Positions 1 through 6,304 of a stretch of 42,855 nt of DNA are shown piece by piece. The DNA comes from an uncultured archaeon. Lineage in GTDB: Archaea > Asgardarchaeota > Lokiarchaeia > Sigyniarchaeales > SOKP01. Each line of letters starts with the position of its first letter. Positions within the stretch are counted from its first letter, which is position 1. The stretch lies in the NCBI GenBank assembly GCA_964508365.1, contig CAZDTP010000034.1:1-42855 (forward strand), given 5' to 3'. The translations under genes and the position numbers were made by a program. The notes beneath the pieces were generated by a model. That model did not search any database and was not told the DNA's origin. It saw nothing but the letters and a program-made list of their open reading frames with translations.

Positions 1-3000
1 AATGGGGCAGGTAAATCCAATATTATTGACGCTTTAACATTTGCTTTAGGTAGGTTAAGCAAAAAAACTATGAGAGCTAAGAGTCTTGAAGATTTGATTT
101 TTGCGGGATCCCGAGGTAAAAACCCTTCAAATAGAGCTTCGGTCACATTATATTTCGATAATTCAGAACAGATTTTTCCCGGTGGAACAGAAACATTTGA
201 GATTACTCGAACAATTCAACGAGGTGGGGGCGGAGGGTATAAGATGAACGGTAAAAATGCCACTAGAACTCAGATTCTTAATGCTCTTGCAGCTGCAAAT
301 GTAGATCCTGATGGAAGTAATCAATTCGTTCTGCAAGGGAAAATAGTAGAATTAACTCACATGAACCCAGAAACACGTAGAATATTTATTGAAGAACTTA
401 TTGGACTACAGAAATACGATGAGATGAAGGATGGAACTATGAAGGAACTAGAAAAGGCTGAAAGAGATCTAGGCCAATTTGAAGCAATTTTCAAAGAAGT
501 ATCATCTCAACTAAAAAAAGTTGAAAAAGAAAAGAATGACGCTTTAGCATGGAAAGAGTTAGATGAACAAATCAACTTATACAACGCTCAATTGATAGCA
601 TTAAAGATAGAGAAATTAAGGAAGGAAGAAAAAGATCTAGAAAAAAGTATTGAAGAATCTAATACAATCTTAGAAGAATTAAAAGAGAAATTAACAAGGC
701 AGGATGAAATTTTAAAACAAGAATCATTAGTTATGGAAAATATACAAAAAACAATAACTGAAAAAGAAAAAGAAAGGGAATTAATCACTGAAAAAATAAC
801 TCAATTTAAAACGCAACAATCTTCAAATCAAACATCTTTAGCCCTAGCAAATAAATCTATTGAAAAAATTTCTCAAGAAATTAATACTTTGGAAAAATTG
901 CAGATGATTCTTGATGAAGGTCAGACATTTGATACTTTAATTGAATCAGAAATAAAGGTTGTAGCAGATACAGAGAGTCTAATTGAAGCAGCAAAAGCAG
1001 AAATTGAGAGTAAACAACAAAAACAAGCAGATATTGATGCAAAAATTAAAGATCAAAACGATGTAAAAACAACATTTAATGGAGAAATCTCAATTATAAA
1101 GCAAAATATTTCATCGAATAAAGCTCAAATTAAAATTCTGAAAGAAAATATTAAAAAAAACGAAGAAAAAAAACAAAAATTAGAATTAGAACTTAACAAA
1201 TTAAAAGGAGAATCAGAAAGCATTGAAGAGGCGATAGCCAATACAAAAAATGAAGCTGAAGTAATAAGAAAAGAAATTGATGACTTAAATATAAAAATAT
1301 CAAAAGAGAACGAAAATCAACAGGATTTAGAAAAAGTTATTGTAAAACTTCAGGAAGATAAGAATAAACTTAGTTCAAAATCAGCAGATTTCAAATCTAT
1401 GTTATCATCACTAAATACAGAGATTAAGATGAACACCGATAGGATAGAAAAGTTGATCTCTGATAAAATTAAAACTGAAGAAAAAATAAAAGAATTAAGT
1501 AAAGGGAAAGACATAGAAGAAGCTTTAAAAGAGTTATTAAAGGAAAAACAAGCCCTAACTAATGAATTAAACATTTACCGAAAACAATTAAAAGATGAAG
1601 ATTCTATTTACAGAAAAAATGAACAAGAATTAGAATTATTGTTAATGAAACAGGATTCTATTGAATCAGAAATTAATGATAACAGAAATAAAATTGATAA
1701 TATTAATACTAAGTTAAATCTATTAAAAAAAGAATTAACCAATCTTGAGAGAGAAAAACAAGATTTAGAACTAAAATCGTCAACTCTAAACGCAAATTTA
1801 ACTAAAACTAGCTCTGAATCAGAAGGGCTTAATGAAAAAAAAGATAACATTCAAAGACGATTAGGAGAGCTAACTACTGAGAAAAATAAATTGTCAGTTA
1901 AAATAGAAAATACTGAAAAAGATTACGAAAGAAATACAGAAGATATAACGGGAATCTTGCAAATATTAAACATGCTCACTCAGAACATCAATATCTCCGT
2001 CGAATCTATCAAGAGCAATATACAACAGTCTAATGCTGAGGCAATAGAGACATCAGCAGTCAACTTTAAACAATTTGTACTTGATATTATCGATATTATG
2101 AAAACGGTTGAAGACGTAAGCTCTGAAGCAGAAGCAGAAGCAGAACAGAAACCAGAAGTTGCTGAAATGTCTGAAACTCTTAAGTCTATACTTCAGACAT
2201 TAACTCTTTTTACTGAGAATGTTGACACAACGATAGATCAGTTAATTGATTCAGTAAAGGAAACTGCTGATGTAGAGATTCAACAATCTACATCAACTTT
2301 TGATAGTTTCGTTCAAGATTTAATGGAAATTCTTGAGAATGTATACTTATCATTGCGAAAACTCACTATGTCAAAATCGCAAGAGCTGTATAAACAGCTT
2401 GAAGAGATTACTGAAAATATCACATCTCAAAATATGGATCTAAACAAAATTGAGAAAGACTTAACTAGGATAAATACTCAAGAAAAGCATGATTCAGACG
2501 ACTTATCAGCAATTAATAAGAGATTAGAAGAAGTTAATAAGAGAATCAGCGAATTACATGAAAAAATAGAGAAATCTGAAGATGAGGTTAAGCAGAGGAA
2601 TATTATAATAGAAGAAAAACAAAAAGAGAATTTCAACGAAGAAATAAAAAATGTAAAACAACTCAAAGAGGCCTATTGGGAAAAAGTTTCTACTATCAAG
2701 GAAGATATCGAATTAAAGCAACAAGGGTTAGACCATCTGCAAAAACAACTTCAAGAATTGCAGGGAATACAAAATTTTTATGAAAAAATCATTGATATTG
2801 AGAATAATATCCAAGAACTAAATTCAAATATAGAAAATAAGAAAAATACTATAATTAACACTGAAGAAAACATTAAAAATCTCAATTTAGAACAAGATGC
2901 TTTAACTTTAAAAATCGAATCTCATATTTTAGAAAAAAATAAGTTTTGGGAGAATACAGAAAAGCTAAGAATTCATATTGGTGACCAGAATAAAAAATTA

Positions 3001-4368
3001 GAGAGTACAATGGACAAATTAAGAGCACTTGAAAATGTTATGATGATTATCAATTCGATTGAAGAATTAGCTAAGGAAAACTTGGAAGCTAACGCCAGTA
3101 TTACAACCAGTACTCAAGACATAGAGGGTTTTAATACCCAAGTAGAAGAGGTACAAAAGAAAGTCAATGATATCCAATTAGTCATAGATGCTTTAAGAGA
3201 AGATAAAAACAAAGAGTTGGAAGCACAAAAGAAAACTCAAAAAGAATTAAATAAATTCAATAAAGATCTTCAAAACATACAGGCAAAATTAAACGAATTA
3301 AATAAAAATAAAGAACGAGAACAGAAAATAATATCTCTTAACCAAGACATCAAAGAAACTGAGAAACAAATAGAATTAATAGTAAAAGATATTGAAAACA
3401 TTGAAATTGAGTTAAAACAAGAAGAAGATAAAAAGAACATAAAACAGGAAGAAATCAATAAAGAGATTCAAGGAAAAGATATATCCTGGCAAAAACAAAA
3501 AAATTATCAGAAAGTAATAAACGACCTACGTTCTGATCATTCGATGGAAAATTCAAAACTAAACAATTTTGAATCAAAAAAGATTATTACTACAGATCAG
3601 ATAGAAACCCTTTACCAGAGATCGAAGGATTATGGCGCTTTGCCAGCAGTGACCGAAGAGCTCTCAGAATCTGGATTACAATCAGATATTTCTACAGCTA
3701 CTAACAAGAAAAAAGCTTTGGAACCAGTTAACTTAAAAGCTATTACGCAATTTGATACTGTAAAAGAGAGGTTTGACGAAATAGATATGAGAAGGCAAAC
3801 AATACAACGTGAAAGAAAAGCAATTCTCGACGCTATTGAAAAAATCGAATTAGAAAAAACTAGAACATTTATGAAGGCTTACCACGAAATTAATCGTGAG
3901 TTTGCTCGCATATTTCAGAAGCTTTCACCGGGGGGATCTGCTAAAATGATTCTTGATAGACCAGATAAACCTTTTGAAGGAGGATGTAGTATAGAAGCTA
4001 GACCTCGTGGGAAGCGTATTTCCAGTTTAGAAATATTGAGTGGAGGAGAAAAAACACTCGTCGCTTTGTCATTTATTTTTGCGGTTCAAGAATTTTATCC
4101 TGCGCCATTTTATATTATGGACGAAATAGATGCCGCATTAGATGGCCCAAATGTTCATAGGGTAAGTATGGTAATTAAAGAATTTTCCAGTCAAGCGCAA
4201 TTTATGGTAATAAGTCACAGAGAAGAAAATATTGTTAACGGTGACCGAATATATGGAGTATCTATGCAACAGAGTGGAATAACCGACATCTTTAGTGTCG
4301 ATTTAGAAGAAGAAGCGAAAAGGTTACTCGAACTTCCGGATGTGCCCCCTAATATTGAAGAAAATTAA
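1..4368 (+). CDS. smc: SMC-family ATPase (5'-truncated), atypical: no canonical hinge domain
   Basis: Frame 1 is open from base 1 (NGAGKSNIIDAL = Walker A), so the gene starts upstream of the window and the ORF-track start at 70 is internal. C-terminal head has LSGGE signature and YIMDEIDAALD Walker B/D-loop; long coiled coils between; followed by scpA and scpB. Confidence 0.95.
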   Translation, partial: NGAGKSNIIDALTFALGRLSKKTMRAKSLEDLIFAGSRGKNPSNRASVTLYFDNSEQIFPGGTETFEITRTIQRGGGGGYKMNGKNATRTQILNALAAANVDPDGSNQFVLQGKIVELTHMNPETRRIFIEELIGLQKYDEMKDGTMKELEKAERDLGQFEAIFKEVSSQLKKVEKEKNDALAWKELDEQINLYNAQLIALKIEKLRKEEKDLEKSIEESNTILEELKEKLTRQDEILKQESLVMENIQKTITEKEKERELITEKITQFKTQQSSNQTSLALANKSIEKISQEINTLEKLQMILDEGQTFDTLIESEIKVVADTESLIEAAKAEIESKQQKQADIDAKIKDQNDVKTTFNGEISIIKQNISSNKAQIKILKENIKKNEEKKQKLELELNKLKGESESIEEAIANTKNEAEVIRKEIDDLNIKISKENENQQDLEKVIVKLQEDKNKLSSKSADFKSMLSSLNTEIKMNTDRIEKLISDKIKTEEKIKELSKGKDIEEALKELLKEKQALTNELNIYRKQLKDEDSIYRKNEQELELLLMKQDSIESEINDNRNKIDNINTKLNLLKKELTNLEREKQDLELKSSTLNANLTKTSSESEGLNEKKDNIQRRLGELTTEKNKLSVKIENTEKDYERNTEDITGILQILNMLTQNINISVESIKSNIQQSNAEAIETSAVNFKQFVLDIIDIMKTVEDVSSEAEAEAEQKPEVAEMSETLKSILQTLTLFTENVDTTIDQLIDSVKETADVEIQQSTSTFDSFVQDLMEILENVYLSLRKLTMSKSQELYKQLEEITENITSQNMDLNKIEKDLTRINTQEKHDSDDLSAINKRLEEVNKRISELHEKIEKSEDEVKQRNIIIEEKQKENFNEEIKNVKQLKEAYWEKVSTIKEDIELKQQGLDHLQKQLQELQGIQNFYEKIIDIENNIQELNSNIENKKNTIINTEENIKNLNLEQDALTLKIESHILEKNKFWENTEKLRIHIGDQNKKLESTMDKLRALENVMMIINSIEELAKENLEANASITTSTQDIEGFNTQVEEVQKKVNDIQLVIDALREDKNKELEAQKKTQKELNKFNKDLQNIQAKLNELNKNKEREQKIISLNQDIKETEKQIELIVKDIENIEIELKQEEDKKNIKQEEINKEIQGKDISWQKQKNYQKVINDLRSDHSMENSKLNNFESKKIITTDQIETLYQRSKDYGALPAVTEELSESGLQSDISTATNKKKALEPVNLKAITQFDTVKERFDEIDMRRQTIQRERKAILDAIEKIELEKTRTFMKAYHEINREFARIFQKLSPGGSAKMILDRPDKPFEGGCSIEARPRGKRISSLEILSGGEKTLVALSFIFAVQEFYPAPFYIMDEIDAALDGPNVHRVSMVIKEFSSQAQFMVISHREENIVNGDRIYGVSMQQSGITDIFSVDLEEEAKRLLELPDVPPNIEEN

Positions 4369-4391: not shown

Positions 4392-5402
4392 ATCGTTCCA
4401 GAAAATGAGAGTGAGGAGAAAAAATTTAACTTCAGCGAATGGAGTGTAAAACAATTACGAGATTTTGCAGGTAAGAATAATATAAAAATTCCCCCTAAAT
4501 CTAAAAAGAGTGATATTATAAAGCTTCTAGAAGAAATTTCTTTTCATCCGGAATTTGTAGATAGAACTCAAGAAGATGAGGATGTGGAAGAGGAATTAGA
4601 AGAGGAATTGATTGCTGGTGTAGAAGAAGATCCCGCATTACTTCACAAAGAAAAATTGGATTTAAAATTTTGGCAAAAACCCCCCTATTCTAGCTTATTG
4701 GATCCAGAAGTAGCAAAAGAGTCCAATGTTGCATTTTATGACCTATCTTCATTAGTAGATAAATTCTTTAATAATATGCTTCACGAAGATTTAATAAATT
4801 ATAAGATAGCAGGAATAGCGCTTAAAACTTCAGCAGTATTACATCATTACAAAATTTCTAGTATAATACGAGAAGAGGAACAGATTCAGAAAAAGGAAGA
4901 ATTAGCACAATTTAGAGAAAAGCATGGTAGATCAATACCCAAATCTTTACCACAACCTATTCAACCTAAAATGTTAATCTCCACAAAAGACGAATTATTT
5001 GACGCGATGAGATCTGCAATTATAGAGACTATGCAAAATAAAGAAAAGCTAAAGAGGCGAAGAATGAGACGGGAGGAATTAAAAGATCAAAAAATTCAAA
5101 TGAAATCTAAAGCGCAACTACCAAAAGAACTTTTAAAACACATTAGCGGGAAGGATCAAACAGTAGAAGAGTTGCATGAATCTTGGTTTAATAGAATAAA
5201 AACTAAAATAAAGCTCGATGGTAAAGAAACGACTTTTTTTGAAATGGCAGAAATTATTAATTCCAAAGAAGATAGCGATATTGGCAAGAAGTTTGCTTTT
5301 GTGCGTATGTTTTTAGCTTTAATGTTCCTCTCGACTGGTAATAAGTTAGAACTATTTCAAGACGAAGATTTTAAGAATTTCTCAATAAATTTAAAAAAAT
5401 AA
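4392..5402 (+). CDS. scpA: ScpA-like kleisin with probable N-terminal HeH/SAP-like extension; start uncertain (ORF track GTG 4584, but frame is open upstream and AAGGTG RBS lies at 4382-4387)
   Basis: Kleisin-like N domain (DLSSLVDKFF...IAGIALKTSAVLHHYK) and C-terminal winged helix (FVRMFLALMFLSTGNKLELFQDEDF); located between smc and scpB. The upstream in-frame sequence translates as protein-like VPENESEEKKFNFSEWSVKQLRDFAGKNNIKIPPKSKKSDIIKLLEEI. Confidence 0.8.
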   Translation: MVPENESEEKKFNFSEWSVKQLRDFAGKNNIKIPPKSKKSDIIKLLEEISFHPEFVDRTQEDEDVEEELEEELIAGVEEDPALLHKEKLDLKFWQKPPYSSLLDPEVAKESNVAFYDLSSLVDKFFNNMLHEDLINYKIAGIALKTSAVLHHYKISSIIREEEQIQKKEELAQFREKHGRSIPKSLPQPIQPKMLISTKDELFDAMRSAIIETMQNKEKLKRRRMRREELKDQKIQMKSKAQLPKELLKHISGKDQTVEELHESWFNRIKTKIKLDGKETTFFEMAEIINSKEDSDIGKKFAFVRMFLALMFLSTGNKLELFQDEDFKNFSINLKK

Positions 5403-5431: not shown

Positions 5432-6304
5432 TTGAACGAAAAGAATGATAAAGAACCTGAAAATCATTTTGATGCTGAAACGAATGAGGACGCATCTTTA
5501 AATGAGACTTATGGTGAAGACATTCCTCAAGAAGAAAAGAGTTCAGAAGATATTGAGATTGATTTAGAGATCACAGAAACCATAGAAGAATATCTTAAAG
5601 AAGATTTTGAAGAAGAAGAGATCAAAGAAGAGATTAAAGAAGAATTTAGTATCGAGGAAGAAGAATCATTGAGTATCGAGCCATCAGAAGAACGGTTAAG
5701 TGAACAAGATACCGAATTTGTTGGAGATGATAAGGATGAATCCCAAATACCTCAAGAACTCACGAAAGAAGAATTAGAATTACAATTAAAAATTCTACGG
5801 AGAAATTTAATAGAGGGTGCGCTCTACGCCGCTGGTAGGCCTTTGGATGTAGAAGAATTATCAACTAAATTAGAAATCCCAAAAAAAGAAGTAGAAGAAC
5901 TTGTAAGAGTTGTTGCTTTTGATTATTTAGAACATGAAGGTGCATTGATTGTAGCTCAAATTGGAGAAAAGTATCAAATGCAGCTAAGACCTGAACTTAC
6001 CGAGACAGTTTCCAAATTCGCTAAAGGTGGTGCTATTGCTGAGCGCTACTTAAGAACACTTACAGTAATTGCGTTAAAACAGCCAATTTTAAAGTCAACC
6101 GTTATTAAATTAAGAGGAAGCGGTGCCTATGAGCATATTAAATATTTATTAGAAAATGATTTAATCACAGCTGTAAAAAAAGGGAGGTCAGCTGAATTAA
6201 GCACATCTGATAAGTACGCGGAAATGTTTGGATTACCTAAAAATAAGGAAGAACTGAAAAGAATGATGATCTCACAATTAGGACTTGGAGAAAACACTAA
6301 TTAA
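5432..6304 (+). CDS. scpB: ScpB (kite) with long acidic N-terminal extension
   Basis: IEGALYAAGRPL, YQMQLRPE, TLTVIALKQPILKS, LRGSGAYEHIKYL and KYAEMFGL are ScpB tandem winged-helix motifs; GGTGA RBS at 5421 then TTG. Confidence 0.93.
   Translation: MNEKNDKEPENHFDAETNEDASLNETYGEDIPQEEKSSEDIEIDLEITETIEEYLKEDFEEEEIKEEIKEEFSIEEEESLSIEPSEERLSEQDTEFVGDDKDESQIPQELTKEELELQLKILRRNLIEGALYAAGRPLDVEELSTKLEIPKKEVEELVRVVAFDYLEHEGALIVAQIGEKYQMQLRPELTETVSKFAKGGAIAERYLRTLTVIALKQPILKSTVIKLRGSGAYEHIKYLLENDLITAVKKGRSAELSTSDKYAEMFGLPKNKEELKRMMISQLGLGENTN

Follow-up and report, generated by a model that had tools for sequence, protein, structure and literature searches.

The DNA analyzed here, referred to as the window, is a 42,855-nucleotide stretch at the start of contig CAZDTP010000034.1 (C34) from an uncultured archaeon of the Lokiarchaeia (assembly GCA_964508365.1). 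The genome is a 4.07-Mb draft in 149 contigs with a completeness estimate of 100%. The window opens with a long gene for an SMC (structural maintenance of chromosomes) protein in which no hinge domain was recognized, followed by two genes in the positions of its kleisin and kite subunits. The SMC reading frame was open from base 1 through 4368, so that 1455 codons were visible. The 5′ end of the gene was cut by the contig start, and orthologues of 1475–1487 aa showed the missing start. The features of the three genes were as follows.

1–4368 (+): hinge-less condensin-type SMC gene; PF02463 (SMC_N) 98.7 bits; TIGR02169 534 bits in four stretches; no PF06470.
1–510 (+): N-terminal half of the ATPase head; PF02463 positions 33–135 correspond to residues 1–104 of the open reading frame (ORF); conservation 0.8–0.97.
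511–1944 (+): N-terminal coiled-coil arm, about 480 aa versus about 340 aa in canonical Smc; TIGR02169 mapping, helix in the AlphaFold2 (AF2) model, a/d heptads.
1945–2109 (+): apex unit 1 (ORF residues 649–703), a conserved, charge-poor, hydrophobic helix of 55 aa; conservation 0.83–0.94.
2110–2178 (+): variable acidic linker; helix break in the AF2 model; conservation 0.38.
2179–2400 (+): apex unit 2 (2179–2343, ORF residues 727–781) and its conserved continuation (YLSLRKLTMSKSQELY); conservation 0.73–0.92.
2401–3690 (+): C-terminal coiled-coil arm; AF2 helix to the end of the modelled region; TIGR02169 positions 673/746–1165 correspond to the last 420–480 residues or so.
3691–4365 (+): C-terminal half of the ATPase head; LSGGEK signature, Walker B FYIMDE, H-loop SH; conservation 0.9–0.97.
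4392–5402 (+): putative divergent kleisin in the ScpA position, with an N-terminal HeH/Ish1-type domain; the mechanically called ORF begins at GTG 4584, the extended start is 4392.
5432–6304 (+): long kite of the ScpB type, extended N-terminally (5432–5800) by an acidic stretch of about 120 aa; PF04079 3e-32; TIGR00281 91.6 bits, above the cut-off.

The heads were assigned from profile matches and motifs. In Pfam, the long protein matched SMC_N alone, divided between both termini, and the C-terminal match (3832–4284) reached 106.8 bits. The Smc-type ATPase motifs GAGKSN, LSGGEK, FYIMDE and SH were all present in the translation. The first of them, the tail of the Walker A motif, stood at the very start of the visible sequence, the first 30 or so residues lying beyond the contig end. 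The initial annotation had described both heads as intact. This stood for the match of both halves to PF02463, but the N-terminal head is incomplete, as the contig begins about 30 codons into the gene.

TIGR02169, the NCBIfam model of archaeal Smc, gave 534.4 bits over its four stretches, under the curated cut-off of 729.4. The canonical Smc paralogues of relatives scored 797–851 bits on the same model. The Rad50 models of NCBIfam, on the other hand, gave the window protein at most 57 bits. We read the product of this gene as a true SMC powered by ATP and belonging to the Smc-ScpAB (condensin-like) type, which would work with a kleisin and a ScpB kite of its own.

The middle of the protein contained two related segments. 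As the initial annotation had stated, two 55-aa units lie at 1945–2109 and 2179–2343 with a period of 78 aa, and the coordinates and sequences were as given there. Aligned ungapped and in register, they scored 83 on the BLOSUM62 matrix with 14 identities. This score was 11.2 standard deviations above 2000 shuffles (z=11.2), of which the highest reached 49, and the best match of either unit elsewhere in the SMC did not exceed 43. BLASTP gave E=3e-8. Compared as profiles with hhalign (sub-alignments of 40 sequences), the two units aligned in register across 60 columns, with a probability of 97.8% and E=1e-12. From the shuffling, the BLASTP and the profile–profile results, the two units are read as a real internal duplication and not as coiled-coil noise.

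The hinge was searched for in several ways. PF06470 (SMC_hinge), the model with which the initial annotation had proposed to check the region, did not match the window SMC at E≤1 in the Pfam search, nor was it found in six diverse orthologues. A 40-sequence profile of window positions 1600–2700 was compared by hhalign with the hinges of 20 canonical Asgard Smc proteins. The probability was 2%, and only the flanking coiled coil aligned. Run against sequences of the PDB, the same profile matched coiled coils alone; the numerous hinges of known structure were not among the hits. The middle region lacked the Gly and Pro residues that are conserved in the canonical hinge alignment. The middle regions of 40 orthologues contained no CxxC motif, with 0–1 Cys in the apex, and a zinc hook of the Rad50 type was rejected on this ground. 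The absence of both hinge and hook, as first annotated, was thus upheld.

The structure of the region was predicted with AF2 from an alignment of the 1600–2700 region, with a mean predicted local distance difference test score (pLDDT) of 83.9. The model consisted of two long helices (region residues 2–181 and 186–342). A hinge fold, named beforehand as the outcome that would speak against a hinge-less apex, was looked for in it; the region was all-helical, without a beta strand. ORF residues 535–714 formed one unbroken helix. The hairpin turn fell at residues 715–718 (EQKP, nt 2143–2154), in the acidic linker and at the midpoint of the full-length protein. The best Foldseek matches of this hairpin were the cytoplasmic hairpins of chemoreceptors (2ch7, E=3e-4), followed at lower rank by coiled-coil pieces of MukB, Rad50, Smc5/6 and Smc. 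The look-up of the apex in the ESM Atlas gave a best score of 0.81, under the useful level.

A cryptic hinge was rejected on the missing PF06470 match, the profile–profile probability of 2% and the strandless AF2 model. The related proposal, that the protein does have a canonical hinge which has diverged beyond the reach of sequence models, draws on the fact that Pfam can miss divergent domains; the hinge of a second SMC of this genome, on contig C22, scored only 38–43 bits. Against it stand the uninterrupted helices of the model, the 2% probability, the loss of the hinge Gly and Pro, and the internal repeat that makes up the region itself. We considered this very improbable.

The length of the middle region was estimated by mapping to TIGR02169. 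Positions 1–498 of the model corresponded to the first 505 residues or so of the orthologues, with more helix beyond. About 500 helical residues thus take the place of some 180 hinge-region positions of canonical Smc. The two units and the linker account for the central 150 residues or so; the remainder is extra coiled coil, about 170 residues per arm. The proposal that the hinge had been replaced by the duplicated unit therefore needed a correction. The apex is a duplicated all-helical unit, but what replaces the 180 residues is mostly extra coiled coil. At 0.15 nm per residue, the arms should be about 1.6 times the normal length, with a predicted head-to-tip distance of about 85 nm versus about 50 nm. 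The extra segments gave secondary TIGR02169 matches to arm positions 230–486 and 682–916. These hint at tandem duplication of arm segments as the source of the added length, although coiled-coil composition could mimic such a signal.

Shorter versions with the same apex module at the midpoint were also observed. These were P0148 (1296 aa, labelled Sigynarchaeota) and the proteins of two genomes of family f29 (G314 and G315, 1307–1349 aa). The tip is thus preserved at differing arm lengths.

Conservation was computed per block over 43 full-length sequences. It was at least 0.9 in most of the heads, 0.55–0.8 in the arms, 0.83–0.94 in the units and 0.38 in the linker. Charged residues made up 15–24% of the units versus 37–40% of the arms, and conserved hydrophobic columns 36–40% versus 17–21%. 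The arms showed a clear a/d heptad pattern. In the units, hydrophobic positions were spread over most heptad positions. This suggested that the apex packs against further helices, because a two-helix hairpin cannot bury such broad hydrophobic faces alone. Taken together, the loss of the hinge in favor of about 500 helical residues with a duplicated hairpin at the apex appeared very probable.

The two genes that follow the SMC gene were examined for its expected partners. The middle ORF as called from 4584 had no Pfam match. Read from the extended start at 4392, it matched Pfam Ish1 at 3e-6, an N-terminal domain of the Ish1/HeH/SAP type. Of seven orthologues compared, some gave weak SMC_ScpA and Rad21_Rec8 matches. 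A profile of the family gave five hits in the PDB, and all were kleisins (ScpA N-domain, ScpA C-domain and Scc1 C-domain; E 0.07–1.4). The support is weak but consistent, and we read this ORF as a divergent kleisin. The product of 5432–6304 was the sole ScpB match in the window genome. The order SMC-kleisin-ScpB was kept in six of seven loci of relatives examined across families. The PF04079 match, the kleisin profile matches and this gene order bore out the Asgard SMC-kleisin-kite operon of the initial annotation. In one relative (L025, G030:C1:113000-123000), the hinge-less SMC gene is directly followed by a gene on the other strand whose ORF does not have the size of a kleisin, so that the order does not hold everywhere.

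An N-terminal extension was present on every kleisin of the hinge-less complex (window 4392–4583 and the kleisin genes of L016, L019, L021 and L022), but it differed in kind. In the window genus and genera g6 and g8 this was HeH/Ish1. The extension in one genome (G144) had a zinc-ribbon-like motif, CPYCGK...H, and those of family f2 were long basic tails rich in Lys, Ser and Thr. By their sequence, the HeH and basic extensions resemble DNA-binding segments, and they are candidate replacements for the contacts of the hinge with DNA. The ScpB proteins paired with hinge-less SMCs totaled 279–375 aa, versus 191–199 aa for those beside canonical Smc.

Orthologues were searched for across the Asgard archaea, as had been proposed. 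More than 120 protein clusters of 1475–1487 aa were found, with 58–91% identity over the middle region. Their named sources were metagenome-assembled genomes of Promethearchaeota/Lokiarchaeia and a few labelled Thor- or Hodarchaeota, where their annotation went no further than 'AAA family ATPase' or 'chromosome segregation protein'. Among 201 sampled genomes of the phylum, the middle region was present only in 37 of 40 members of the window's family, in all three of a sister family of the same order, and in one odd genome. The apex profile was also run on all 160 genomes of the class, and 130 had a match, including three closed genomes. By family, the counts were 113/134 in f1 (the family of the window), 13/13 in f2, 1/1 in f28, 2/4 in f29 and 0/7 in three further families together. 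The architecture was conserved and, as in its first description, a distinct one. The lone genome of family f22 with a hinge-less operon (L022, G193:C70) carries it on an 8.6-kb contig, and its SMC nearly coincided in the tree with the one from G162, an f2 genome. Contamination during binning is the likely explanation, not a separate lineage.

A misassembly at the locus was rejected on the intact architecture in these clusters and genomes. The wider possibility of an assembly artefact or a decaying pseudogene takes its point from the draft state of the genome, with its 149 contigs, and from the cut of the gene by a contig end. The architecture was uninterrupted in more than 120 clusters and in 130 of 160 genomes, single-contig ones included, and the heads and apex were strongly constrained. 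The breadth of the conservation refutes this explanation.

The other SMC genes of these archaea were located by their hinges. In the phylum sample, the window genus and genera g2, g3, g5 and g7 showed only a weak hinge match, in an ORF of about 1150–1170 aa. Genera g4, g6 and g8 and family f2 showed an additional strong hinge (E about 1e-34) in an ORF of about 1200 aa. Five of the latter genomes had three separate SMC genes: a canonical one, a hinge-less one and a divergent third. The canonical Smc of those five adjoined a short ScpB of 191–199 aa, and the hinge-less SMC adjoined the kleisin and a long ScpB of 279–339 aa. The same three SMC genes were present in three closed genomes of f2. One of these (G217) encodes a protein 100% identical to DSAG12_01461 of Promethearchaeum syntrophicum, which is placed in order CR-4, family MK-D1 (supplementary table, bioRxiv 10.1101/2024.01.07.573240).

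The initial annotation had asked for a separate canonical smc. It is present in several relatives, but none was found in the window genome, which has the divergent hinge-bearing SMC on C22 instead. In the SMC_hinge searches of genomes, canonical Smc-ScpB was not found in most of the family either. The hinge-less complex is therefore the only Smc-ScpAB-type machine detected in the window genome and in most of its family.

The gene on C22 (L015:7268-10771, -; G000:C22) encodes 1167 aa and is the only hinge-bearing SMC of the genome. It scored 166–181 bits on Smc models versus 534 for the window protein, and the ORFs on either side of it (425 and 217 aa) belonged to no Pfam family. It is probably of the SMC5/6-related type, with the flanking ORFs as its putative kleisin and kite. 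The Smc-model scores, rather than the tree described below with its imposed outgroup, argue against this type for the window protein. A second, SMC5/6-related complex beside the condensin-like one has been described in Asgard and TACK archaea (Yoshinaga & Inagaki 2021, PMC8665677; bioRxiv 10.1101/2024.01.07.573240), and both studies report an extra SMC5/6-type duplication in some Asgard archaea. Neither mentions a hinge-less condensin-type SMC.

The relationship of the hinge-less proteins to canonical Smc was examined in a tree of head domains. It contained 35 sequences, was rooted on the divergent C22-type paralogues as assumed outgroup (stem 3.05) and included no eukaryotic SMC5/6. All hinge-less proteins grouped in a single clade (support 100%, stem 0.97) whose internal branches were short. 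This clade was nested within the radiation of canonical Asgard Smc, far from the SMC5/6-like outgroup. By its position in the tree and its coexistence with a canonical Smc in several relatives, closed genomes of the MK-D1 family included, the hinge-less SMC is a paralogue of canonical Asgard Smc and not merely a modified orthologue. Because of this tree and the genomes with three SMC genes, we conclude that the whole Smc-kleisin-ScpB set was duplicated and that one copy was rebuilt hinge-less. In most of f1, the window genome included, searches no longer find the canonical copy.

These results bear on a different role for the complex, that of a Rad50- or RecN-like repair or tethering machine, and not of a condensin that extrudes loops or segregates chromosomes. 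Its long arms would bridge DNA ends or sister molecules by tip-to-tip contacts of one complex with another. The long arms with a small helical tip resemble both proteins, the coiled coil of Rad50 was among the Foldseek matches, and coexistence with canonical Smc in some relatives would allow specialization. Like the window protein, Rad50/SbcC has SMC-like heads and a small non-globular tip. However, the window SMC has no zinc hook, the operon contains no nuclease gene, and its partners are a kleisin and ScpB rather than an Mre11-type nuclease. Its heads were nearest Smc, not Rad50. Because no other complex of Smc-ScpAB type was found in most of the family, this one is probably a housekeeping machine. 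We regarded the repair role as improbable.

The apex profile was searched exhaustively against 1.84 billion representative proteins. It found 40 proteins and no more. Those examined were long SMCs, their fragments, one HEAT-repeat false positive, and a family of proteins of about 920–1180 aa without a Pfam domain. The last contained two tandem copies of the module, at about 68–235 and 321–475. After the second copy came a beta-rich region, and several ended in a lysine-rich, histone H1/HC2-like tail. Members included P0140, P0135, P0147 and the product of L107:6178-9255 (-), which is G083:C26. The named ones were DSAG12_01461 of P. syntrophicum and WKT22_04228 of Lokiarchaeum ossiferum. Genomes of f2 contained the family, as did a single genome of f1 (G276); it was absent from the window genome and from all searched members of its family but G276.

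The AF2 model of the first 520 residues of a tandem-module protein (pLDDT 86.3) showed successive long helices with turns in the linker of each module. Foldseek with this model gave TM-scores of at most 0.31 against the query and nothing interpretable, and the gene context in G083 was uninformative. The presence of the apex in both SMCs and a non-SMC tandem family argues for an autonomous module, which would be an undescribed helical domain. The tandem occurrence fits self-association, but also a docking of the SMC tip on such proteins.

Our interpretation is a hinge-less Smc-kleisin-kite complex of paralogous origin, with the two arms joined by the apex hairpin. We consider this the best explanation overall, with a probability of about 60%. 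The alpha/beta hinge would have been lost from a Smc duplicate in an ancestor of that order of Lokiarchaeia to which the MK-D1 family belongs. The duplicate would have gained about 170 coiled-coil residues per arm and an apical hairpin of two homologous 55-aa helices with an acidic loop, at which each monomer folds back. The hairpins of two monomers may then pack by their hydrophobic faces and form a four-helix bundle, as hairpins of chemoreceptors or ROP do. The bundle would close an SMC-kleisin ring or rod whose arms would span about 85 nm. Contacts with DNA of the type made by the hinge may come from elsewhere, such as the HeH domain or a basic N-terminal extension of the kleisin.

Homodimerization into a four-helix bundle is the most likely mechanism for the apex, and we infer it at roughly even odds. 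Chemoreceptors provide the model, as two of their cytoplasmic hairpins form a four-helix bundle. The hairpin of 2ch7 is a similar long antiparallel one; its sequence match was E=0.11 and its function is unrelated, and the analogy concerns the mode of dimerization only. A complex prediction with two apex copies (residues 75–295 of alignment A1) scored 0.00, below the mark, and counts neither way. In Bacillus subtilis, Smc with its hinge swapped for the zinc hook of Pyrococcus Rad50 was described as functional (Burmann et al. 2017, PMC5344682). This suggested that a small alternative tip can in principle suffice. Like the window protein, that chimera is a Smc without a hinge and with a small alternative tip; the window protein, in contrast, is natural, has no Cys or zinc hook, and has longer arms rather than arms kept or shortened.

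Several points weigh against this interpretation. The dimerization of the apex is inferred from a model and from sequence. The pLDDT of the apex was about 74–77 versus about 95 in the flanking arms of the monomer, which fits an unsatisfied interface or plain uncertainty. The figure for the length of the arms is an extrapolation based on the sequence and on a model of part of the protein. The charge of the apex is acidic to neutral, so binding of DNA by the apex itself is unlikely, and for the role of the hinge in DNA binding there are only candidate substitutes. In the head tree, the hinge-less clade and the canonical Smc of the same order formed a polytomy.

A rival account of the apex is that it serves as a docking module for a protein with helices of the same kind or for some other factor, while zipped arms, or the heads together with the kleisin, would be all that joins the SMC chains. 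In its favor, the H1/HC2-tailed protein of about 920–1180 aa in the MK-D1 family has tandem copies of this module, heterotypic bundling could tether the SMC tip to DNA, and the broad hydrophobic faces would suit any helical-bundle partner. Yet the apex is equally conserved in the window genome and in all but one of the searched family genomes, which lack the tandem-module protein, and the conserved operon encodes no apex partner. We thought docking of this kind unlikely. The two functions may also be combined: the autonomous module would close or pair the 85-nm arms and, in the MK-D1 family, the H1-tailed protein would dock on the SMC tip and tether it to chromatin. This we put forward tentatively, as possible but not probable. 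If true, it would be a new mode of SMC–DNA coupling in the closest cultured relatives of eukaryotes, a prospect to be held with the same reserve.

In SMC proteins proper, the supposedly universal hinge is treated as a hallmark that matters for the mechanism, serving in dimerization, in DNA binding and possibly as a DNA gate. On the interpretation of the apex hairpin as the joint between the arms, the two arms of the hinge-less SMC must join in a manner not yet described. A conserved natural Smc-kleisin-kite complex without a hinge tests which hinge functions SMC action really needs. The longer arms, and the status of this complex as the sole one of Smc-ScpAB type in many genomes, matter for the same question. 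The Lokiarchaeia, a lineage used to reason on the origin of eukaryotic cohesin, condensin and SMC5/6, also gain in this complex a third one of distinct structure. If the identification of the P. syntrophicum genome and the tentative one of the Lokiarchaeum ossiferum genome hold, these proposals are open to bench work.

The protein was also compared with described systems. Canonical Smc (TIGR02169/TIGR02168; PF02463 with PF06470) shares with it the split ABC head, the antiparallel arms and the downstream kleisin and ScpB. The window SMC differs in having no hinge, about 500 residues in place of about 180, arms of about 1.6-fold length, a duplicated hairpin tip and a score below the equivalog cut-off. 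Literature on Asgard or Lokiarchaeota kleisin, condensin and ScpB yielded nothing further on a hinge-less SMC. Within the literature searched, the hinge-less SMC of the Lokiarchaeia is thus undescribed, with a new apex module and lengthened arms.

The term 'hinge-less SMC' was met in that literature for engineered constructs and for a cluster from marine Actinobacteria, which has neither hinge nor zinc hook (Sussfeld et al. 2025, PMC12153180). The actinobacterial cluster, in contrast to the present one, is bacterial and comes from ocean gene catalogues, and no partner genes were described for it there. It was compared by description only. Of the 40 proteins hit by the apex profile, those examined were of the Loki type apart from the HEAT-repeat false positive, and the few source names were all Asgard; no sign of a shared apex module was seen. 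On these sequence comparisons, the loss of the hinge was probably independent in the actinobacterial cluster and in the Lokiarchaeia.

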